From the NCBI GenBank assembly GCA_040954595.2, contig CM082594.2, positions 5,317,319 through 5,381,318 on the forward strand: 64,000 nucleotides of DNA, given 5' to 3'. Made by a program: the position numbers and the translations under genes. Within the stretch, counting starts at the first letter, position 1; every line of letters begins with the position of its first letter. This stretch comes from Balanoglossus misakiensis. Its lineage: Eukaryota > Animalia > Hemichordata. Below the pieces are notes generated by a model. The model was not told where the DNA came from, searched no databases, and worked only from the letters and a program-made list of their open reading frames with translations. Shown here piece after piece: positions 46,915 through 64,000 of the stretch.

Positions 46915-47010
46915 ATGATATATCTGCGTATTCTCTTGAGTCTTTTGGTTTTCGTCCACGCGCATGGCGAAGATAGTGCGAATACTACGACTGCGCCGGA
47001 TCATTGGAAG
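46915..47010 (+). CDS. Exon 1: signal peptide + linker
   Basis: MIYLRILLSLLVFVHAHG-EDSANTTTAPDHWK; donor AAG|GTATGA (phase 0). Confidence 0.85.
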
Positions 47011-50000
47011 GTATGAAGTTCAGGCTCAACCTATTTATTCCTACGAAGCAAAAATGTTGATTGTGAACCAGTTCCAAGGGCACAATGTATCGGTGGCATG
47101 TTCCTATGCGGGAACTCTAAGAACAAATTCCAATCGACAATTTGGGAGAAATAACCACATTTGTCCATTGTCCTACTAAGAGTACAAAACGCGGTTGCCT
47201 CTCGGCTTTTTTGGAGGTGGACGACAAAACAAAAACTTTTGACTGTTGAATGAAACTGTCTTGAATTGGCAGTTCGACAAATTACATACGGTTCATTTTT
47301 CATTTCAGTACGCGGAGGATTGCATAACGGGTAAGTTATACGTTTATATCCTTCAATGTATTCACTAACGCTTTTGCCAAGAAATTCTAACAGCACCGCA
47401 AATGTTTTTTTCTTCTGACTTCAGTAATATCGACAGGAAATACTGTAGTGTTTCCCACGAATTTTAAAAGCTTGATTTTTATTAGCCGTTTTTATTAAGT
47501 CAATCTCATAACTCGTATGGCAATAGAAAGTTAATTTCTTAGTTCTCAAATATTCAGGAAATATATGCATTACATGGTTTCCCTGTTCAGCGTACGACTG
47601 AACATTTCTAGTTTGAAAAGGGCCGTTTCCCATTATCTCCACATAATGTAAGAAAGAGTTATCTTTCCAGGTCGCATCTGTAATGAAGATTGCCAAGGAC
47701 TTTCGGATAATGGCTACTGTAATGATAGGGGAGACGGGTCCTATTACAACGCAAATCGAGACTGCAAATTTGGCACGGACTGTAAGGACTGTGGAGTAAG
47801 GGGTTGGTACACTAAACATCCGATACATGCCTCTGAGTTCTAACTCTGAAAAGGAAATTCATGTACTGATTCTGCACTTTGTCGTCGCACGCCCAAGCAA
47901 AATATCATTAGCATGTCATTTGCATAGGGATAAAATATGCTAATTTCAGACCCATGTTACAGTGTGTGAACATAGACCGATACGGGAAAATGTGATAGAC
48001 ATTAACATTCTTTCACTTTCTAAATTGGTATTTCTTGGTATAGCCAAGGGGGAAGTCGTACAAACGTGTTGATTGTTATTTCTCTCTCCAGTGTGTTCCA
48101 ACACATGTTTCGAGAGCAACGACGGAGCGTGTGATGACGGTGGTGATGGCTGGGAAACTAGAACCTGTACTTGGGGCACGGACTGCCATGACTGTTATGC
48201 GCATAGTAGGACTATAATTATATCAAGGATCGTCATATCAATGGCAATTCTGTGACCATTATATGAAGGCCCATTATACCAATGACCCCTATTAAATGAT
48301 CCTGGCATCAAAGACACTAAATCAATGGAGCTTTCCCAACTACGTGACCATTATGCCAACGTCCAATATACCAGTAACCATATTATCAACCACTGTATCA
48401 ATATATGAATGTCCATTATATATTAAGAGAAAAATGACAGTCTTTTTTCAAAACCATTTCGTAAACGATCAATACATTTCACCCAGCAGGTACTCATTTT
48501 CACATTTCCACTTTTCAGGGCCTTGGCGACCAGATGGTCGGTGTGGACCAAAAAAACATCATACGTTGCCAAATTTCAATCCAGGAGAATGTGATCCAAA
48601 CAGTTTATCACCGTGCTGTTCAGCAGATGGATGGTGTGGCAACACAACTTTGCACTGTGATTGCCCCACCTGTATCAATTATAGCAGTATGTATGGCAAT
48701 ATTAACAGTAATTTAGTATTCAGAGACTTGATTTGCCAACAAGTGGCCGCAAGCGTGGTGGCCATATTGCATTTTCGTTTATATATAATGATAGATAATG
48801 ATAGACCCATTGGGCTGAAATGGTTTATAGAATTTGTTATGTAAAATTTTATCTCACTTAGGCCTACTCACCCACTCTCACTCACTCACTCACTCACTCA
48901 CTCACTCACTCACTCACTCACTCACTCACTCACTCACTCACTCACTCACTCACTCACTCACTCACTCACTCACTCACTCACTCACTCACTCACTCACTTG
49001 CTCGCTGGCTCATTCATTTATTCTTTCATTCACCCACACTGTCGTCTTAACCTTTTTTTTTTGCATTTCATTTCAAAGTTCAAAAATGGCGCGATGATGG
49101 AAGGTGTGGTCCAGATTATCCGCTGCCCAACGGTGACCCCGCCGAATGCAACCCATACAGTCCCATCGCTCATTGCTGCTCTGAATTCGGCTGGTGTGGC
49201 AGAACTGTAGCTCATTGTTACTGCCCCAGCTGTAAAGACTACTGTGGTAATGTAAAATCTTCAAATTTATTGGCTTCGTAACAAGTTAGGCAAAAATGGC
49301 AACCGGTCCACGCCGTTTTTAGTCTTCACAGATGTGTGTGATTAATTTATGTGCGCACAAACACAAATGACCTCATTCCTTCAGTCCACGTTTTGCACAA
49401 ATTGTGATACTATGATTATTTTCGTCTTTTTTGGGCACACATTTCCACTGACACTTTTCTGCGTTCTTACCCCCAACAGCTCGTCACTTGTTCGATTTCG
49501 TAAATACTACGAGATCACCGGATCATTGGCAGGTGGGAAGATCAATCTCAAACTATTTATTCCTACGAAGCAAAAGTGTTGATTGTGAACCAGTTCCAAG
49601 GGCACAATGTATCGGTGGCATGTTCCTATTCGGCAACTCTGTGAACAAATTCCAATCGACAATTTGGGAGAAATGACCACATTTGTCCATTGTCCTACTA
49701 AGAGTACAAAACGCGGTTGCCTCTCAGCTTTTTTGGAGGTGGACGACAAAACAAAAACTTTTGACTGTTGAATGAAACTGTCTTGAATTGGCAGTTCGAC
49801 AAATTACATACTTTTATCAGCTTCATTTTTCATTTCAGAATGCGGAGCCTTGCGTAACAGCTTTAACAGGTGAGTTACACGTTTATATCCTTCAATGTAT
49901 TCACTAACGCCTTTGCCAAGAAATTCTAACACCACCTCAAATGTTTTTTTTTTCTTCTTCAGTAATATCGACTGGAAATACTGTAGTGTTTCCCACGAAT

Positions 50001-53000
50001 TTTAAAAGCTTGATTTTTATTAGCCGTTTTTTATTAATTCCATCTCATAACTCGTATGGCAATAGAAAGTTAATTTCTTAGTTCTCAAATATTCAGGAAA
50101 TATATGCATTACAGGGTTTCCCTGTTCAGCGTACGACTGAACATTTCTAGTTTGAAAAGGGCCGTTTCCCATTATCTCCACATAATGTAAGAGAGAGTTA
50201 TCTTTCCAGGTCGCATCTGTAATGACAATTGCACAGCCTATTCGGGTAATGGCGTCTGTGAGGATGGGGGAGAGCCACCGGAAGAAGGCGGAAGAATAAT
50301 CCGAGACTGCTTAATTGGCACGGACTGTAGAGACTGTGGACCAAGGGGTAATTGGTACACTTATTCTGCACTTTGGCCTCGCATGCCCAAGTCAAATGTC
50401 ATTTGCATATGCTAATTTCAGACCCATGTTTCAAAGTGTGAACATAGACCGATATGGGAAAATGTGATAGACATTAACATTCTTTCACTTTCTAAATTGG
50501 TATTTCTTGGTATAGCCAAGGGGGGGGGGGAGTCTTACAACATGTTGATTGTTATTTCTCTCTCCAGTTTGTTCCAATACATGTTCCTCGAGCCACGACG
50601 GAACGTGTGATGACGGTAGTGATATCTTGCACACTAAAAGATGTGATTGGGGCACGGACTGCGCTGACTGTAGAGGGCATGGTAGGACCATAATTATATC
50701 AATGATCGTCATATCAATGGCAATTCTGTGACCATTATATGAAGACCCATTATACCAATGACCCCTATTAAATGATCCTGGCATCAAAGACACTAAATCA
50801 ATGGAGCATTCCCAACTACGTGACCATTATGCCAACGTCCAATATACCAGTAACCATATTATCAACTACTGTATCAATATATGAATGTCCATTACATTTT
50901 AAGAGAAAAATGTCATTTTTTTTTCAAAACCATTTCGTAAACGATCAATACATATCACCCAGCAGGTACTCATTTTCACATTTCCACTTTTCAGTGCCTT
51001 GGCGACAAGATGGTCGGTGTGGACCAGATTATAAGTTGCGAAATTACAATCCAGGAGAATGTGATCCAAACAGTTTATCACCGTGCTGTTCAGCAGATGG
51101 ATGGTGTGGCAACACAACTTTGCACTGTGATTGCCCCAGCTGTATCAATTATAGCAGTATGTATGGCAATATTAACAGTAATTTTGTATTCATAGGCTTG
51201 ATTTGCCAACAAGTGGCCGCACGCATGGTGGCCATATTGCATTTTCGTTTACATATAATGATAGACTCATTGGGCTGAAATGTTTTATAGAATGTGTTAT
51301 GTAAAATTTTATCTCACTTAGGCCTACTCACCCACTCTCACTCACTCACTCACTCACTCACTCACTCACTCACTCAGTCACTCACTTGCTCGCTGGCTCA
51401 TTCATTCATTCATTCATTCATTCATTCATTCATTCATTCATTCATTCATTCATTCATTCATTCATTCATTCATTCATTCTTTCATTCACCCACACTGTCG
51501 TCTTAATCTTCTTCTTCTTTTTTTGCATTTCATTTCAAAGTTAAAAAATGGCGCGATGATGGGAGGTGTGGTGCCGATTATCCGTTGCCCAACGGTGACC
51601 CCGCCGAATGCAACCCATACAGTGACACCGCTTATTGCTGCTCTGCATTCGGCTGGTGTGGCAGATCTGTAGCTCATTGTTCCTGCCCCACCTGTAAAGA
51701 CTACTGTGGTAATGTAAAATGTTCAAATTTTTTGGCTTCGTAACAAGTTAGGCAAAAATGGCAGCCAGTCCACGCAGTTTTTAGTCTTCACAGATGTGTG
51801 TGATTGATTTCTGTGCGCACAAACACATATGACGCCATTCCTTCAGTCCACGTTTTGCACAAATTGTGATACTATGATTATTTTCGTCTTTTGGGGCACA
51901 CATTTCCACTGACACTTTTCTGCGTTCTTTCCCCCAACAGCTCGTCTCGATGGCGTAAATAGTACGAGATCGCCGGATGATTGGAAGGTATGAAGTTCAG
52001 GCTCAACCTATTTATTCCTACGAAGCAAAAATGTTGATTGTGAACCAGTTCCAAGGGCACAATGTATCGGTGGCATGTTCCTATGCGGGAACTCTAAGAA
52101 CAAATTCCAATCGACAATTTGGGAGAAATAACCACATTTGTCCATTGTCCTACTAAGAGTACAAAACGCGGTTGCCTCTCGGCTTTTATGGAGGTGGACG
52201 ACAAAACAAAAACTTTTGACTGTTGAATGAAACTGTTTGAATTGGCAGTTCGACAAATTACATACGGTTCATTTTTCATTTCAGTACGCGGAGCCTTGCG
52301 TAACAGGTGAGTTATACGTTTATATCCTTCAATGTATTCACTAACGCCTTTGCCAAGAAATTCTAACAGCACCGCAAATGTTTTTTTTCTTCTTCAGTAA
52401 TACCGACTGGAAATACTGTAGTGTTTCCCACGAATTTTAAAAGCTTGATTTTTATTAGCCGTTTTTTATTAATTCCATCTCATAACTCGTATGGCAATAG
52501 AAAGTTAATTTCTTAGTTCTCAAATATTCAGGAAATATATGCATTACAGGGTTTCCCTGTTCAGCGTACGACTGAACATTTCTAGTTTGAAAAGGGCCGT
52601 TTCCCATTATCTCCACATAATGTAAGAGAGAGAGTTATCTTTCCAGGTCGCATCTGTAATGACAATTGCACAGCCTATTCGGGTAATGGCGTCTGTGAGG
52701 ATGGGGGAGAGCCACCGGAAGAAGGCGGAAGAATAATCCGAGACTGCTTAATTGGCACGGACTGTAAAGACTGTGGACCAAGGGGTAATTGGTACACTTA
52801 TTCTGCACTTTGGCCTCGCATGCCCAAGTCAAATGTCATTTGCATATGCTTATTTCAGACCCATGTTTCTAAGTGTGAACATAGACCGATACGGGAAAAT
52901 GTGATAGACATTAACATTCTTTCACTTTCTAAATTGGTATTTCTTGGTATAGCCAAGGGGGGGGGGGAGTCGTACAACATGTTGATTGTTATTTCTCTCT

Positions 53001-54337
53001 CCAGTGTGTTCCAATACATGTTTCTCTAGCCACGACGGAACGTGTGATGACGGCAGTGATATCTTGCACACTAAAAGATGTGATTGGGGCACGGACTGCG
53101 CTGACTGTAGAGCGCATGGTAGGACCATAATTATATCAATGATCGTCATATCAATGGCAATTCTGTGACCATTATATGAAGACCCATTATACCAATGACC
53201 CCTATTAAATGATCCTGGCATCAAAGACACTAAATCAATGGAGCATTCCCAACTACGTGACCATTATGCCAACGTCCAATATACCAGTAACCATATTATC
53301 AACCACTGTATCAATATATGAATGTCCATTACATTTTAAGAGAAAAATGTCAATTTTTTTTCAAAACCATTTCGTAAACGATCAATACATATCACCCAGC
53401 AGGTACTCATTTTCACATTTCCACTTTTCAGTGCCTTGGCGACAAGATGGTCGGTGTGGACCAGATTATAAGTTGCGAAATTACAATCCAGGAGAATGTG
53501 ATCCAAACAGTTTATCACCGTGCTGTTCAGCAGATGGATGGTGTGGCAACACAACTTTGCACTGTGATTGCCCCACCTGTATCAATTATAGCAGTATGTA
53601 TGGCAATATTAACAGTAATTTTGTATTCATAGGCTTGATTTGCCAACAAGTGGCCGCACGCATGGTGGCCATATTGCATTTTCGTTTATATATAATGATA
53701 GATAATGATAGACCCATTGGGCTGAAATGGTTTATAGAATTTGTTATGTAAAATTTATCTCACTTACTCACCCACCCACCCACCCACTCTCACTCACTCA
53801 GTCACTCACTCAGTCACTCATTCATTCATTCATTCATTCATTCATTCATTCATTCATTCATTCATTCATTCACCCACATTGTCATCTTAATCGTTTTTTT
53901 TTGCATTTCATTTCAAAGTTAAAAAATGGCGCGATGATGGAAGGTGTGGTCCCGGTTATCTGCTGCCCAACGGTGACAACGCCGAATGCGACCCATACAG
54001 TCCCACCGCTTATTGCTGCTCTGACTTCGGCTGGTGTGGCGGAACTGTAGCTCATTGTTACTGCCCCGAATGTACAGACTACTGTGGTAATGTAAAATGT
54101 TCAAATTTATTGGCTTCGTAACAAGTTAGGCAAAAATGGCAGCCGGTCCACGCCGTTTTTAGTCTTCACAGATGTGTGTGATTAATTTCTGTGCGCAAAA
54201 ATACAAATGACCTCATTTCTTCAGTCCACCTTTTGCACAAATTGTGATACTATGATTATTTTCGTCTTTTGGGCACACATTTCCACTGACACTTTTCTGC
54301 TTTCTTTCCCCCAACAGCTCGTCACTTGGTTCTGTAA
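46915..54337 (+). CDS. Secreted cysteine-rich multidomain protein (6 hevein/chitin-binding type-1-like + 6 six-Cys DGxCDDG/GTDCxDC modules), 19 coding exons, 678 aa
   Basis: join(46915-47010,47309-47330,47671-47802,48092-48205,48519-48686,49079-49246,49480-49532,49839-49869,50210-50347,50568-50681,50995-51156,51541-51708,51941-51987,52285-52306,52647-52784,53005-53118,53432-53593,53919-54086,54318-54337). All introns are GT-AG with compatible phases; total 2037 nt with no internal stop. Signal peptide MIYLRILLSLLVFVHAHG; AATAAA at 54432. Confidence 0.85.
47309..47330 (+). CDS. Unit 1 microexon (22 nt, one Cys)
   Basis: tttcatttcag|YAEDCIT(G)|gtaagt; converts phase 0 to phase 1. Confidence 0.8.
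47671..47802 (+). CDS. Unit 1 exon A, six-Cys module
   Basis: GRICNEDCQGLSDNGYCNDRGDGSYYNANRDCKFGTDCKDCGVR; acceptor ctttccag; donor G|GTTGGT placed by homology with units 2 and 3. Confidence 0.8.
48092..48205 (+). CDS. Unit 1 exon B, six-Cys module
   Basis: VCSNTCFESNDGACDDGGDGWETRTCTWGTDCHDCYAH; symmetric phase 1. Confidence 0.85.
48519..48686 (+). CDS. Unit 1 exon C, hevein-like eight-Cys module
   Basis: RPWRPDGRCGPKKHHTLPNFNPGECDPNSLSPCCSADGWCGNTTLHCDCPTCINYS; CCSxxGWCG is the chitin-binding type-1 core. Confidence 0.88.
48864..49034. repeat. (CACT)n/(CATT)n microsatellite in the C-D intron (paralogous tracts at ~51325-51490 and ~53760-53875)
   Basis: Read directly. Confidence 0.95.
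49079..49246 (+). CDS. Unit 1 exon D, hevein-like module with extra C-terminal Cys
   Basis: IQKWRDDGRCGPDYPLPNGDPAECNPYSPIAHCCSEFGWCGRTVAHCYCPSCKDYC. Confidence 0.88.
49480..49532 (+). CDS. Junction/linker exon, unit 1 to 2
   Basis: ccccaacag|ARHLFDFVNTTRSPDHWQ|gtggga; phase 1 to 0; weak donor. Confidence 0.7.
49839..49869 (+). CDS. Unit 2 microexon (31 nt)
   Basis: NAEPCVTALT(G)|gtgagt; carries a 9-nt in-frame insertion relative to the other copies. Confidence 0.78.
50210..50347 (+). CDS. Unit 2 exon A
   Basis: GRICNDNCTAYSGNGVCEDGGEPPEEGGRIIRDCLIGTDCRDCGPR; donor G|GTAATT. Confidence 0.85.
50568..50681 (+). CDS. Unit 2 exon B
   Basis: VCSNTCSSSHDGTCDDGSDILHTKRCDWGTDCADCRGH. Confidence 0.85.
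50995..51156 (+). CDS. Unit 2 exon C (hevein-like)
   Basis: VPWRQDGRCGPDYKLRNYNPGECDPNSLSPCCSADGWCGNTTLHCDCPSCINYS. Confidence 0.88.
51541..51708 (+). CDS. Unit 2 exon D (hevein-like)
   Basis: IKKWRDDGRCGADYPLPNGDPAECNPYSDTAYCCSAFGWCGRSVAHCSCPTCKDYC. Confidence 0.88.
51941..51987 (+). CDS. Junction/linker exon, unit 2 to 3
   Basis: cccccaacag|ARLDGVNSTRSPDDWK|gtatga; phase 1 to 0. Confidence 0.78.
52285..52306 (+). CDS. Unit 3 microexon (22 nt)
   Basis: YAEPCVT(G)|gtgagt. Confidence 0.8.
52647..52784 (+). CDS. Unit 3 exon A
   Basis: GRICNDNCTAYSGNGVCEDGGEPPEEGGRIIRDCLIGTDCKDCGPR. Confidence 0.85.
53005..53118 (+). CDS. Unit 3 exon B
   Basis: VCSNTCFSSHDGTCDDGSDILHTKRCDWGTDCADCRAH. Confidence 0.85.
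53432..53593 (+). CDS. Unit 3 exon C (hevein-like)
   Basis: VPWRQDGRCGPDYKLRNYNPGECDPNSLSPCCSADGWCGNTTLHCDCPTCINYS. Confidence 0.88.
53919..54086 (+). CDS. Unit 3 exon D (hevein-like)
   Basis: IKKWRDDGRCGPGYLLPNGDNAECDPYSPTAYCCSDFGWCGGTVAHCYCPECTDYC. Confidence 0.88.
54318..54337 (+). CDS. Terminal coding exon
   Basis: cccccaacag|ARHLVL* (TAA at 54335-54337). Confidence 0.8.
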
Positions 54338-54431
54338 ATGTGAATACTAGCGGGGCAGATTATTAAGGAATATAACGGCGATGGTATCTGTAAAATTGAG
54401 TCAATTTGATTTATGGGTGTAATGTAATTTC

Positions 54432-54437
54432 AATAAA
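54432..54437 (+). terminator. Polyadenylation signal of the cysteine-rich gene
   Basis: AATAAA (overlapping AATAAATAAA) ~95 nt after the stop, followed by T/GT-rich sequence. Confidence 0.7.
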
Positions 54438-56232: not shown

Positions 56233-58588
56233 TCAAGTGGGCGTTCCACGCTTGAAGCAAACCAGCTCCATGACCGCCCTTCTGTACTCTTGGTTGGCAA
56301 AGACATAAATGATGGGGTTGAGCATACTGTTCGTGTACAGGAGCCAGTGGAGGGCTATGATGAGGCCGTGGGGCAAACTGGAGGGCAGAAACACCAGAAG
56401 GATGTAGGTGATTTTATACGGTAACCAGCATATGATGAAACAACCAACGATCATGGTCAAGACTCTGGTCGCCTTCCTATCTTGGGTCGATTCAATTTTC
56501 CGCTTCCTCTGGCGTATTTGCCTCACGTAATCGAAAACGTCCGTCCGGGTTGCCGCTCCCCTGGTCCGCAGATCAGGAATCTCCGCCTCGCTGTCCCGTT
56601 TGCCAACGTCGCGTTCCATGGGCATCTGGTCAATGTCGCACAGGTTTTTGAAGTCGCTGATTGTGTTGTGGGACCTGCGCATTTTGGATTCGAAGGTCTC
56701 TTTGGTCGTCTCTGTCCTGACGGCCAACTCGATCAAGTCTCGGTTGGTGTCCTTCAACAGCATGTCTCGGATGATGGACGCCTTTCTCAGGTCGCCCTTG
56801 GGTGAGCGCGAGGGCGCTGTCCCGTCCGACTCTCCGCCGACTCCCAGTACGAGGCTCTTGCGGCGTCTTCCCGTCGGGGATGGTGGCGGCGTTCCGCCGG
56901 GGGAATACATCCCTGGACACTGAGACACCCGGCGGATGTTTCTCCGGCACGTTGGGGAGACGGCCAGACTCCACCTGCGCTTGCCGGAAATGTTAGGAGA
57001 AGGTTCCCGCTCTAACAAAGACGACACCCCAAGACTGCCCCTCCTCGTCTGCTCCACCGACGTCACAACTAAACTCTGGCGGCGGTTCTGGCAAGGGGAC
57101 ACTGCCCTTCGCTTTCCATAGATTTGTCGAACAGTAAAGTCGCTCATCGCGAAGCTGGTCTCATCAAAGTCAAGCGCAGACTTCTTTTTGAGAAATTTGT
57201 TCAAACGCGGTGAAAGTAAGCGATCGGTTTTGTATAACGGGTCACGGGGACTCTCGTTCCCATAGGAGAAATCCGGCATGGTCGATGCAGCCCCGTCTTC
57301 TGCGCCGCGATGGTCGTTACCGGCGTCAACCTCGCTGTCTGTTCTGTCCGAGCCATCGATCGACAATTCTCGTATGACTTCGCGAAGAATCTCGTCGGCT
57401 TGGTATGGCGTTTTATTTCTTAAACCAGAGTCAGTTTGGCACTGACTCAACTTCGATCTACGCTCTTCGTGGTCACTTTTCCCGTCGTCATAAGTGGGTT
57501 CCTTCAAGTCCAGCGCGACCTCGGAAGCCGAAGTCTTTTCTCGCTCTCGAGCGTGCGCATGTTTGGCGAAGAACAATCTCTCATCGGAACTCACGTCCAA
57601 ATCTGAAACTTGAAGATCCTGTCGGCTGATCCTTCGCCGTTTCTGTCTCCTCTCGCCGTCTGCCTTGTTGCCAGGGGCGGCGGACTCGGCCACCTCGCAC
57701 GGTGCCACCGCGTTCACCGAGATCACCATGTTCGTCCGTTGTTCTTGTACCACCGAATCCCTCAGGTGGACGTCCGCGAACACTGTGTGGGTTTGCTCGG
57801 CATGAGTGGACTGTAGTGAGTTCAGAATGGATATGTCCGCGTCGCTGTGTGATAACCGCGTCGACATGTCAGCCATCGAGAAGCATTGGTCGTCGGAGGG
57901 CTTCAGGTTGGCCAGCAGGTTGTCAAGGCCGGACTCGCTGCTCAAAGATGTCGGTAGGATGCACTTGAACGATTGCAGTCTCACGTTTGTGGACCACTTG
58001 CGCGTCGATCTGGTTTCCATGGAGGGCACACTGCTGCACGTTGTCGAACTGGTGTTGCTTCTGGGCAAGCAGGAACCGGGTCTACCAACGATGGTGTCCA
58101 GCGAAGATCGGCGTCGACTGCGTCGGTACATGTCGGTTTTCGTCAAGTCAAACGAATTCGAAGTCTTTATTTTCAGCCCAAGTGACTCCATGAAAGACTT
58201 TGCTCGCATGCTACGCGGGAACATCTGGCTGGTCGGGCAGGAGTTGGAGCGTCGCGGCAGCCGGGAGACGCTGAATCGGCGGACCACCGTGTTTCGGCGC
58301 CGGAATCGAAGCCGCGCCAAAACTTTGGATATCCGCCAATAGATAGTCAGCATCGTGACAAGCGGGATGTAGAAAGTGAAAACGTCCACCACGATTGTGA
58401 AAATACCCGTCTTCTGATTGGTTACATTCACTGGTGCAGCCTCGTCCAAGCCAATGAAATGCTTCCACAGTACCATCATAACACTCAGAACCACGCAGCA
58501 GAGAACCCACATCACTGCTATCGTTACCAGGCAACGGCCACGTGTTCGCGTGCGCAGAGATTTGATTGGATGTGCCACTGCATTGTAT
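56233..58588 (-). CDS. Aminergic class A GPCR, exon 2 (ICL2-TM7, very long ICL3)
   Basis: Acceptor ttccag|A TAC completes DRY. TM5 TFYIP..MLTIYWRI, TM6 KATRVLTMIVGCFIICWLPY, TM7 WLLYTNSMLNPIIY, helix 8 NQEYRRA; stop at 56233. Confidence 0.95.
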
Positions 58589-60802
58589 CTGGAATTTGAG
58601 GGGGGGGGGAGTACAAGTTTTAGTAAAAAATCTGCAGACTACGAAAAAACCCGAAATGTCAAAAGAAACACAATCACGTCCAATTTACAAAGCCTATACA
58701 CAGAGGTTAAAATGGAGTGTCTTTACATGACTATGTGGCGTCGCACTTTTTACGGTTGGATCCCCAAGCAAAAATCTGTGACTGACAGATCTCCACCTTC
58801 CATGGCATCTATGATGGTTTAGCTTACATATGTGATGACTGTGCAGTCAACATTAAAACATTCCCTTTTTAAAAAAATAACGAATATCAGAAAGACAGCT
58901 ATCAAACATTTTGGTGACAATAACAACGCACGAATTTTTCAGGACTTTGAGGTATTTTTGTAAGTAAACGAGAAATTTTGAAAGGACGTTGAACGTCAGT
59001 TTTGCGAGTCTAATTTTATTCTCAACGCCTTATTTTTGTCCTAAGGGTGGACAGACATAAAAGCACACGAGACTAAAAGAAAGAGCGGTTGTCAAAACAA
59101 GTTGCACACACAATCCCTGGGAGGTACAATTACCGTTGGACCGGATCGCCAATACAACCAAAAGGGGGAAATCTCGCGGTACACTTCCTTGGAGGGGGGT
59201 GGTTACGCCCCCGGTATAATTAATGATTTTATCTAGAGACCACAATTCGTGGCGATATGACACTCATATTCTCCACGTACGACCCCCACGGAAACTGTTT
59301 ATACCCTGTAACGAAAACAATGCTAGTCAGAAAATCAGCGTCTAAATTCTCAGAATAGTGAATTTATCTCAATTTTAACACATTCTACTCCTTTGTGGGG
59401 GGTACTGAGGCGTTTTAATTCATATTAAATTCAGATGCGATTTTTCCCACTGTCGTATTCGGCAATCAATTAAATCCATAGCCCATATTCGCGTCTTTAG
59501 ACTACGATGTTCTGCTATGATTTTTCCTGAAAATTTCGTACATGGTGTACCATTTTCACGTTAACATTTTCCACGTACTCCACAATTTTCGATGGTCCGG
59601 ATTAAAACTAGAAAAATGACGAGTTACACTTTGCAACTTTGCAAGGTTTAATGAGCAAAATGCAACCGTTCTTAATCGCCAAGGTTACTGTAGACGATTC
59701 CATGCTAACAGTTCATCCCTATGGTAATCAATGAATGGTCTGGGATTTCGAGAAGAGCGTTCGGCTGCAATTAACTGAAATGATTTCGACTTGAACTCCG
59801 TCAGACCTTCCGAAATGGACAACACGGTAGGAGGTTGAATTTTCGATCTTGGTTGATCTTATCCATAGAAGTTTAGTCGGCGACGCATAAATGGCATATA
59901 GGTGGACATTGTATTTACGCCCAATGACGGGGCATGCCACAATCCCACAAACCAAAGAACATCACTGTTGCAATTATTAACGCGATGTTGTTTTGTTGTC
60001 TAATTTCCGTGGCAACCACGGTGACGTTATACCCTCAGCGGATTAGCTATAGTGCAAAATTGGAAATCTGAAGGTAACGGGCGATATACTAGTAGTTTGT
60101 CTACAGAGAGGAAACATGGTGGTATGGCAACGGATGTTGACTCAACCGGAAACAATCGCTCGAGCGCTGATATACGCAAGTACTAGTACATACAATCAAA
60201 TAAAATTTCGCGGGTTTTGGATCAACTACTGGCAAAGAATAGACCATTTTCCGAACTCCACGAGACCCTGCGAGATCTCGCGAGACTAGGCAGTCTAAAT
60301 GGGAAGATATGCTCATGTCCTACAGGACAAATAAAACATGGCCCATCTTAGTGTTCAACGACACAAAAGTTACAAGTTCTCCTTTCGAGCGTACTGATTA
60401 TTGCGTTGGAAATCTTTAAAACGGAAATTTCGTTTTAATACTTTTTTGTGCATTTTTCATTTTGCAAGCTCCATTTAATAAGAGGGATCGCTCACTTCAA
60501 GAACGTTGAAGCTATTGCCTTCACGCACTGCATGATGGTTACATAAATTTGCGTCAACGGGTTATGATAAATTTGTTGCGAAACCAAAGCACAATATGTT
60601 GTACAAAAAAGGGAACAGTTTAGGATCAATATGCAAGTGCCCCCCCCCCTCCCCCACATCATGCAAATTGATATATCGACTCTCACCGACACCGCACTGT
60701 TCAAGAAACTCCATGAACTCTGTCGTCAACTCAAACTGTTTACCAAAAGAACAAAATTAAAACCTCAAATCACTTCACTATGCAAACCGACTGTTCACCT
60801 AC

Positions 60803-61158
60803 CGATCAATGCTCAGGGCGCAGATATTGAACACTGAAGCCGAACAGTAGACGAAATCAAAAGTTCTCCAGACGATCCAGGCGGTTTCGCCTAGCAACCA
60901 CTCGCCGGCAATCTGGTAGGCTATGTACGGGGGCATCACAAAGCAGCCGACGCAGAGGTCGGCCACGGCCAGGGAGATGAGGTAGTACGCGTTGACTTTT
61001 CTCAGCTTTTTGGAGCTGGTGATGGCGACGATGACCATCACGTTGCAGAGGATGGTCACCAGGCAGACAAACGTCAGCAAAACGCCAAGGCTGAGTTTTC
61101 CCGTCGAAGTCAGAGTTACAGCGGAAGCTGCGTCCGCATCTGAAATATTCGCCTTCAT
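60803..61158 (-). CDS. Aminergic class A GPCR (histamine/muscarinic-like orphan), exon 1 (N-term to TM3); full protein 903 aa
   Basis: ccaacATG start; NIS sequon; TM1 TILCNVMV, TM2 SLAVADLCVGCFVMP, TM3 WRTFDFVYCSASVFNICALSIDR with D3.32. Donor CG|GTAGGT (phase 2); 356+2356 = 2712 nt in frame. Confidence 0.95.
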
Positions 61159-64000
61159 GTTGGAAATGATGGACAGGATTCTGAACTGATGGGCATCAAA
61201 AACCGGACGCGTGTCTTCGCGACGAGTTGTCCTCGGCTAATGATACTATCTCCTGGCGTGACTGGTGATGAGCGGCATAAGATCACGTGAACAAGAGATG
61301 ACCATCCCCATCCCTCCATAACCTTGCAAACACGTGCACGTGAAGACACATTTCGTGTCAGGGATTTCCTAGAGGGAATAGTCGCAATGCACATCGAACC
61401 GGATGCTCAGACCATCATTAGTGCGACACGTGGCTTTTTAATTGCCAACTGCATATTGGACAAAGGCTCAGAAAGGACAACCGGCGCACCAAGACCATGG
61501 TTTTGAGAAACACGTGCCTAATTATTTGGAGAGAAAAAAGTTTTTGACTTTGTTGCTTGGCCTCAAATGTAACGGAAAAATATGTTTTCTGATTATGTTC
61601 CTTGACCTCAAAAATGCATGCACCGCGCTGCATGGCTCCGAATTTTCACTGCAGGCAACCCCATTTTGTCTGGTACATGCTCCACGTGGTACGTGCGCAC
61701 TGACCAGCAATGCGAGCCGCATTAGTCTTAATTGGATCAGTTGCAAAACACGTAATAACGCTAATTTGACGGATAATATTCGTTCCTGAAAGGGCAATTT
61801 GGGTGACAGAGTTGGAAAATCGGTCGTCGTTAAAAAGGAAATGACGCTTAGTTTTATGGGGTTTTAATATAATCTGTGGTTTTAAATTGTTGTAAATTGG
61901 CGGAAATGCGCATACGTACAAATACCAAATATAAAACAAATAATGAAGAACTTGAACAACACATCCCGAAAAACAAACAGCGACATGGCAATACGCATGT
62001 GCGGTTTTAATATAACAAGTTCTGGGCTCGTTCTCAGACAGCTATTGGTTGAAGTTGGAACATGCAGAACTGAATGAAAAGACAAGTTGGGATTTTTTGC
62101 CTTCTGTGGACTACACACCGAGTTCTATTCAGACAAAAAAAAGGAAAATCACACGCGATTGAACCATTTCTCACAGACAAGCAGCGGTGCCAAGATACCG
62201 ACTAGCATACCGACTATCTGACCACAAATTGTGTGGATTATGGGTGGGTTATGGATTGGATCATGGATGTGATGGGGTATGATGATGCTGGCAATGTAGC
62301 CAAGATCAAAGAGGACACCACAGCCCCACCAATTTCTCTCTCACACTATATTGTTAATTGAATATTTTTGAATCATTTTATCATGTTATTTGCCAACTAA
62401 GCTAAGCCACAAGCGTAATATACCTGGCTGTCTGGTGTTACAGCGCCCCCTTCCGCCCATTTCACATACAGCGCTAGGCTTTTGGGTGATGTGTCTGATT
62501 AACTTATACACTGTACAGCAAATTTTGATGTTAACAATTGTTAAAATGTGAACGTCAGAGAGCGCTGTTCTCCGCTGTTCACAGTCGTCATTAATTGGGT
62601 CATGACGTATTCGTGTTACTTAATATATTGTGTCTTTGCGTTGCTTTTCAGTGACACGTTTGTCGTCACACTCGGCGTGACATGACGTCATATCGTTATG
62701 TACCAAAATTTGACATGTTTTTATAGTTAGCATTAAAAAAAAAACAAGTGAACGATTCTTGACACCAGGGGAAAGCGAATAAGATGCTGTGACGACTTTT
62801 CCTGTTTACGACAAAAAGTGGCATGAACGACAAGACATTATCTTCCTGTCAGTAATTTAAAGACATTTTTGCTCAAACAAGACCGGAAAGGAGACATAGA
62901 TCGTGAAATCAGCGTAAAATAACCCGCCAGGACAACTTTGTTCATAAACACGATGTCGTCTGCTTGGTAGGACGAACACTGTCAGAAAGTAAAGTCTCCA
63001 GCAACAGCGATTAGCATGTCGAGAAAATTACCAAAAGATGGAGCGTGCAGGAGTCATGATATTTTGTTGATCAAATCTGATGAACACTAAAGAGTAGCAA
63101 GCCGCTGGATATCATTGTACTGCGCCTCAATTGTGCCATCCTTAAAACCCATTTCCTGTTCTTCCCTTTCGCTCTTCCTATTGTTTACCGTTAAGAGTCA
63201 GTAATGCCTGGTTTCTCTTACTCGGAATAGAGACTACTCAAATGCTAATTTTCCCTAAACTGGCTCCATCATGGGTTCTGCAGCTACAGGTGGTCCCGAC
63301 GCTGCAGCTAATGACTATATGTCACAGAAACGGGCACCATTGAAATACCTGTACTGCTTGTATTAAGCGAGTGACAATCCCTAATGAAAATTCTCCCGCT
63401 AAAAATATACTTGAAAATTATCGTCTGGTAAATAATTGTACCAAATTCGTGTTTTTTCCCCAAAAAAACTGACAATGAGTCCTTTCTCTCCCGGAAAGTG
63501 TGTATAAGTGTTAATATAATTAAGTCTAAGTTGTTTCCGTATATTATGCCATACAGGACTTATTAACGCCTTAACCTGTTGATAGATAACAGAAAACTGA
63601 TCTCTCAAGTTTATTAGCGTCGTTGAAATGATGGTCTTTCACGCTCCATTAGACAATATTATAAAACGAGATGATACTACCAAGTACACGTTAATTTTGT
63701 TGTGATTTTTAGTTGACTCTACGTTGAAAAGACTGATTCCTCCTATTTTGGAAGCTCTATCGGGGATATATAATAATCAAAACTATCAAAATTTGTGGAG
63801 TGACTTTTCCTGTATAATATGTCGTGTATCAAAATTAGTTATGCTTTTGACTCTTTGGGGAACGGGCGGATGACTTGAAAGACGCCCCCTGCGACGTTAT
63901 TTGAGCACCGCTCTTAAAAGAGCAATGGTTATGAATATAGAATCATAGTGTGTATTATTTGATGTCATCTTAGCGTTTAGCCCCTTTGACATCCCCGTAT

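Follow-up and report, generated by a model that had tools for sequence, protein, structure and literature searches.

A 64,000-nucleotide stretch of the genome of the hemichordate Balanoglossus misakiensis (GenBank assembly GCA_040954595.2, contig CM082594.2, positions 5,317,319 to 5,381,318 of the forward strand), here called the window, contains three tandem units of ~2.45 kb each that are predicted to be parts of a single gene for a secreted protein. Each unit is composed of exons X-A-B-C-D-E and the array is preceded by a single signal exon. Exons A and B encode small modules with six cysteines (Cys) each, in which 40-50% of the residues vary from one copy to another, against ~2-5% at introns and silent sites, and positive selection has probably driven these modules apart. 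The explanation toward which we lean, with moderate confidence when all its parts are taken together, is that the gene encodes a secreted multivalent lectin for chitin or peptidoglycan whose A/B tips were diversified by positive selection, probably against microbes. Exons evolving faster than introns are a familiar mark of molecular conflict, and the pattern itself is already known.

An earlier sequence-only reading had proposed that the exons of units 1 and 2 diverge far faster than their introns, almost exclusively at replacement positions. Recounting reproduced its figures. Outside one loop, exons A1 (47671..47802; this and all other features of the gene lie on the plus strand) and A2 (50210..50347) differ at the 14 aligned codons it had listed, all of them replacements and none silent, and their six Cys codons are identical; with the loop included, 21 of 43 aligned codons differ, again without a silent change. 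For exons B1 (48092..48205) and B2 (50568..50681), the ~25 differences in 114 nucleotides (nt) were confirmed as 25, and the 14 replacement and two silent codons as 14 and one among 37 whole codons plus one more silent change in the codon that an intron interrupts. The X-A intron of unit 1 (47331..47670), taken as a neutral comparator, differs from that of unit 2 by five substitutions and one indel over its last ~245 nt, where ~6 sites in ~250 nt had been claimed, and at 12 of 339 nt over its whole length. The B-C intron (48206..48518), also a neutral comparator, differs at 11 of 313 nt, as counted before. Together, exons A and B differ at 59 of 240 nt and the flanking introns at 43 of 867 (Fisher p 4e-17), and 35 of the 36 changed codons in A and B are replacements. 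A sliding-window comparison, which the same reading had suggested, places the peaks of difference at exons X, A and B (9, 21 and 16 per 60 columns), and windows centred on introns hold 0-7 differences, except for 11 in the first one, which takes in the last part of the first exon.

Two features had escaped that reading. The A-B intron is 9.3% divergent between units 1 and 2 and contains four indels, its 5' part being the more divergent, with indels of 51 and 22 nt. In addition, a third unit follows, whose exons A, B and C nearly match those of unit 2: when whole codons are compared, 1, 4 and 1 nt differ, respectively. Exons C and D diverge at or above intron level and far below A and B (5-12%). 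A1 and A2 resemble each other no more (51%) than either resembles a distant paralogue (46-53%). Sequencing or assembly error was rejected because the indels are in-frame and public contigs match the assembly: these contigs show one difference in 285 nt over the unit-1 exon A with its flanks and one in 139 nt over the exon A of units 2 and 3, and the letters of the E1 junction are present in public run X2 (a run label, distinct from exon X2).

The sequence-only reading took this pattern for diversifying selection and asked for a ratio of replacement to silent rates (dN/dS) above 1. By counting, A and B of units 1 and 2 differ at proportions of 0.285 for replacement sites (pN) and 0.106 for silent sites (pS). 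Pairwise maximum likelihood under a codon model gives a dN/dS of 3.5-4.4 when the loop is included and 5.1-7.4 when it is left out (p 0.002-0.007). All four modules taken together still yield 3.0 (p 0.008), so that the signal is not merely the product of a post hoc choice of A and B. For C and D, dN/dS is 1.5-1.6 between units 1 and 2 (not significant) and 6.6-7.0 between units 1 and 3 (p 0.01-0.02). When the rate of double hits is left free, the contrast of units 1 and 2 remains significant (p 0.02-0.03), as do all modules together (p 0.03-0.04). The proposed check succeeded for A and B of units 1 and 2; the contrast of units 1 and 3 is no longer significant once double hits are allowed.

A silent divergence equal to that at replacement sites would have spoken against selection and was not found: between units 1 and 2, none of the 15 fourfold sites in A and B differs, nor do more than one of the 44 codons that specify the same residue. 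In old duplicates, by comparison, such codons differ far more often (15 of 28 for C1 and D1, 10 of 17 for A1 and B1). The silent sites stand at intron level (introns 3.5-5%), which argues against conversion restricted to introns. Neutral simulations with an equal number of changes and with mutation modelled on the introns, whether or not hits were clustered, produced 4.6-6.2 codons with silent changes only where one is seen (p 0.013-0.043) and ~14 third-position changes where eight are seen (p 0.005-0.015). Adjacent double changes depend on the reading frame, with 10 at codon positions 1-2, four at 2-3 and two across codons; the X-A and B-C introns hold no such pair. Measured against 396 repeats of the family, 17 of 26 family-variable positions have changed and only 3 of 20 family-conserved ones (p 0.0009). 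Changes hence spare the conserved positions and fall on the variable ones, which indicates that purifying selection keeps the core while the rest outpaces neutral DNA.

Further variants came from public reads of one sample with three DNA runs on record, and the assembly itself may derive from some of these runs. The pieces are neither phased nor countable, and the read differences are the 40 best supported of 129 and of 98. Runs X1 and X2 contain an exon-A type that the window does not have and that, in a hand reading of 20 listed rows, differs from A2 by at least 14 replacement codons, one silent codon and a 3-nt deletion in the loop, the X2 contig holding one further difference. In ~62 nt of adjoining intron, the X1 contig shows ~3 substitutions and a 3-nt gap. 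At five codons outside the loop, A1, A2 and this extra type have three different residues. A B type from the reads combines residues of units 1 and 2 (four replacement codons among the five listed of its seven differences). Compared with unit 2, intron contigs show six differences in 311 nt and six in 326 nt, and the signal exon has a variant with three changed codons, two of them silent. More diverged contigs of C (19/209) and of the B-C intron (14/194) point to further paralogues. In the extra exon-A type, at 50254-50262, the changes that remove the third cysteine also give rise to a pyrimidine tract that ends in AG and resembles a splice acceptor, with a phase unfit for the upstream exon.

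The units exchange sequence, and their grouping varies along their length. The intron before X groups units 1 and 3 (14 of 15 odd sites are in unit 2), the segment from X to C groups units 2 and 3, and D is star-like. Recombination between units is real, and the visible conversion between units 2 and 3 spans exons and introns alike. Each C-D intron carries a CACT/CATT microsatellite that differs per unit (48871-49030, 51330-51490 and 53770-53870), and the grouping shifts from 2+3 to star-like near it. The linker exons E1 (49480..49532) and E2 (51941..51987) are in-frame chimeras according to alignment, the 5' part resembling the last exon and the 3' part the terminal stretch of the first. This structure points to unequal crossing-over between tandem genes as the origin of the repeats. 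A short word just past the stop codon of the last exon recurs in the first exon and may mark the site of a crossover.

A and B are two copies of one repeat of ~40 residues, most commonly of the form C-x3-C-x7-C-x11-C-x5-C-x2-C. A word-based homologue search with exon A returned no match; relatives emerged from a profile search, which found 1,135 at E 0.001, the named ones including Saccoglossus and myxobacterial proteins. Carriers of the repeat are extracellular and varied (trypsin, papain, kringle, EGF, FG-GAP), 12 of 77 scanned having any Pfam family at 1e-6, and no Pfam family for the repeat itself was found in the homologues scanned. The closest whole protein is the uncharacterised Ptychodera flava XP_070572361.1 (P0002 below), composed of A-B-C-D and the Amidase_2 domain of a PGRP. 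The Lin-12/Notch repeat (LNR, PF00066) is likewise small, acidic and six-cysteine. In scans of homologues rather than of the window's own modules, the Pfam Notch model matched none of 9 at E 1, none of 77 at E 1e-6 and not P0002 at E 1. In the ESM Atlas, the named clusters that lie closest are LNR, at 0.78-0.82, a lead under the bar of 0.9. An LNR protein was rejected by the tests run, none of the 86 homologues matching the Notch model; low-confidence structure models returned no fold match. Sequence searches of the PDB with A/B profiles gave no match at E 10. The repeat has no name, structure or ligand on record, and the architecture is undescribed: our literature search, whose coverage ended short of subscription journals and genome-paper supplements, found no description of the window gene, of a hemichordate chitin-domain PGRP or of the A/B repeat. 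A and B are putative variable recognition surfaces of the protein, as the sequence-only reading had supposed.

C and D belong to the hevein-like chitin-binding type, and are predicted to bind chitin or peptidoglycan. D1 matches the chitin domain of amphioxus PGRP3 (PDB 4Z8I) over 54 residues at E 2e-20. C contains 8 and D 9 cysteines, and both hold the eight-cysteine core. The binding-site residues of BbtPGRP3 (S51, W53, W55 and H62) correspond to Ser, Phe, Trp and His in D1-D3. BbtPGRP3 binds chitin through Trp53 and Trp55, with a five-fold gain of amidase activity on Lys-type peptidoglycan, according to excerpts of PMC4610682. P0002 scores 23.8 bits against Chitin_bind_1, below the curated cut-off of 27.8. 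In a homologue search with D1, all four candidates were other proteins, the window gene's own product not being among them. D-type modules also occur in two metagenome proteins, P0003 and P0004, named mannosyl-oligosaccharide glucosidase. All these family assignments come from single exons and homologues.

The predicted frame comprises 678 codons in 19 exons separated by 18 GT-AG introns, with splice sites read from the sequence and phases that all match; splicing and expression of the three-unit gene are predictions. The first coding exon (46915..47010) provides an ATG, a hydrophobic stretch forming a predicted signal peptide, a short linker and a GT donor, in a frame continuous with X1; its match to residues 1-20 of P0002 is weak (45% identity, E 1.3). 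X1 (47309..47330) is a 22-nt exon with one cysteine, AG/GT ends and a fitting phase. A1 and B1, both hypervariable, are followed by C1 (48519..48686; 8 Cys, Asp at the first aromatic position of the site), D1 (49079..49246; 9 Cys, Ser/Phe/Trp/His site retained) and the linker E1. Unit 2 continues with X2 (49839..49869; 31 nt with a 9-nt insertion), A2, B2, C2 (50995..51156), D2 (51541..51708) and E2. Unit 3 consists of X3 (52285..52306), A3 (52647..52784; 1 nt different from A2), B3 (53005..53118; 4 nt different from B2 in whole codons), C3 (53432..53593) and D3 (53919..54086). The last exon (54318..54437) adds six codons and a stop at 54335-54337, with the first AATAAA at 54432. Three separate genes were considered and rejected, units 2 and 3 having no signal exon and the 5' flank being single-copy in the window. 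Each unit contains 30 cysteines, including one odd cysteine in X and another at the end of D, as does P0002; these two may pair with each other.

The window gene shares with P0002 a signal peptide, a lone N-terminal cysteine, the order A, B, C, D and the 30 cysteines, with module identities of 46-65%. Unlike P0002, which has one unit and then an amidase, it has three units and ends six codons past D3. A tblastn search with P0002 found no amidase under E 1 in the 64-kb window, and the stop codon comes after D3; the window gene was accordingly rejected as a PGRP, Amidase_2 being absent from the window. P0002 itself is a hemichordate fusion of hevein-like chitin domains to a PGRP amidase. According to PMC4610682, the fusion of a chitin domain to a PGRP amidase had been known only from amphioxus. 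Amphioxus BbtPGRP3 (PDB 4Z8I) resembles the window gene by its hevein-like chitin-binding domain, homologous to C and D, and is unlike it in having one chitin domain with an amidase, no A or B and no repeat; hypervariability is not reported in the part of PMC4610682 consulted.

The design is paralleled by the VCBPs of amphioxus and Ciona, secreted proteins in which two variable modules at the N-terminus are joined to a chitin-binding end, as described in excerpts of PMC2632668 and PMC4757023, the same excerpts reporting haplotype and copy-number variation. For the window gene, the corresponding observation is that two runs from a single sample carry additional exon types, on unphased contigs. 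Unlike VCBPs, the window gene has no immunoglobulin V domains, and its chitin domain is plant-like, that of VCBPs being of the invertebrate type (excerpts of PMC4610682). A VCBP was rejected since A and B are six-cysteine repeats of ~40 residues and not of the immunoglobulin V type, and the resemblance is an analogy, not a homology. Conotoxins, snake three-finger toxins and mussel MgCRP-I likewise show positions between cysteines that vary while the Cys codons are conserved, introns that resemble each other more than the exons do, and a switched segment, according to excerpts of PMC3823881, PMC2474615 and PMC4558851. In contrast to them, the window gene has no pre-pro-peptide build and no sequence relation was found, and its divergence lies between repeats within one gene. 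A peptide of the conotoxin or MgCRP-I type was rejected, the frame being multidomain with 678 residues and 19 exons.

The explanation we favour would start from a paralogue of a P0002-type PGRP without its amidase, loss being the simpler reading of a direction that we infer. Unequal crossing-over would have fused the last exon to the first exon, yielding the units, which would still exchange tracts. After duplication, replacement changes between the cysteines of A and B would have been fixed faster than neutral ones. D would anchor the protein on N-acetylglucosamine polymers with the high avidity given by three units, while six A/B modules would be displayed, their selected positions contacting a target that itself changes. 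Lacking an amidase, such a protein would clump or tag its targets rather than cut them, as an agglutinin or opsonin. A role of the window gene in microbial recognition is plausible. We advance only tentatively the more specific idea of an acorn-worm counterpart of VCBPs made from non-immunoglobulin parts. It would be a secreted receptor anchored on chitin or peptidoglycan, derived from a PGRP that dropped its enzyme, with an undescribed six-cysteine repeat for its variable tips, and diversified within the species by selection together with shuffling and copy-number change of entire in-frame units.

Several observations weigh against the favoured explanation. Units 2 and 3 being near-identical in A-C, there is one independent contrast for A and B. 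The comparison of units 1 and 3 is weaker than that of units 1 and 2 (dN/dS 2.6-3.4, p 0.03-0.07) and loses significance under the double-hit model (p 0.33-0.41). Multiple hits affect 21 of the 36 changed codons, many for stepwise selection. The scaffold of cysteines, described as fixed by the sequence-only reading, is indeed kept in all three units, but in the extra exon-A type from the reads the third Cys codon of A specifies Phe, and this type may be a decaying copy. C1-C3 have Ser, Asp, Trp and His at the binding site, with Asp at the position of PGRP3 Trp53. Predicted structures reach a mean predicted local distance difference test score (pLDDT) of 59 for B1 and 64 for the stand-in P0038, and fold searches with these weak models gave no match. 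Diversifying selection, as claimed by the earlier reading, is supported by dN/dS above 1, silent sites at intron level, changes at family-variable positions and recurrent codons in the read variant, and is weakened by the single contrast and by the double hits.

One alternative is that mutation targeted to exons, or short-segment exchange from unseen paralogues, produced the pattern through multi-nucleotide changes, micro-conversion or segment switching, with little or no positive selection. It draws on the multi-hit codons and the loop replaced outright, on the absorption of the signal between units 1 and 3 by the double-hit model, and on donors that exist in the reads (the mixed B type, the diverged C and B-C intron contigs); segment switching is described for snake three-finger toxins (excerpts of PMC2474615). 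Yet the double changes are frame-dependent (10/4/2) and absent as adjacent pairs from the X-A and B-C introns, the share of transitions is equal in exons and introns (p 0.45), older paralogues, had they been the donors, ought to have contributed silent changes as well, and the fitted rate of double hits, 0.5-0.9 of the single rate, is very high. Exchange may supply variation, but its retention at replacement sites would still need selection, and we regard this alternative as unlikely. Another would have A and B diverge long ago under purifying selection, conversion later erasing the differences in introns. Exchange between units is evident in the 1+3, 2+3 and star-like segments, and the 5' part of the A-B intron has diverged, with its two long indels, as this history would have it. 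Silent differences would then be expected, yet one of 44 same-residue codons and none of 12 Cys codons differ, despite the use of both TGT and TGC, and in old module pairs more than half of the same-residue codons differ. Changed and identical codons alternate at a scale of 1-2 codons, and the visible conversion between units 2 and 3 takes in exons too. The silent sites have already largely ruled out this history, which we consider very improbable.

Selection may also be real and its driver other than microbes, such as gamete recognition or allorecognition, or else a structural function in the mucus or the egg coat. Reproductive proteins show a like excess of exon over intron divergence, and the A/B repeat sits on varied extracellular proteins. 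The closest relative, P0002, carries a peptidoglycan amidase, and the homologous amphioxus chitin domain boosts action on peptidoglycan (excerpts of PMC4610682), both of which argue against such a driver, and we consider it quite unlikely.

Elsewhere in the window, a Dlx (Distal-less) gene occupies 860-2050 on the minus strand, its first exon sharing 99% identity with the P. flava gene and 77% with that of Saccoglossus, and ~45 kb without another long open reading frame separate it from the three-unit gene. On the other side, 56233-61236 on the minus strand contains an open stretch of 801 codons and is predicted to encode an amine-type G-protein-coupled receptor with a very long third intracellular loop.

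The new point is an unnamed six-cysteine repeat with more than 1,100 relatives that here seems to be under positive selection and is linked to a hemichordate chitin-binding domain. Should the protein prove to be a microbial receptor, it would be convergent with VCBPs and would form a diversified recognition family in the hemichordates, a phylum for which the literature searched yielded no such family. The A/B modules of units 1 and 2, with the same scaffold and half of their residues changed, constitute a natural pair for finding the target of the repeat.

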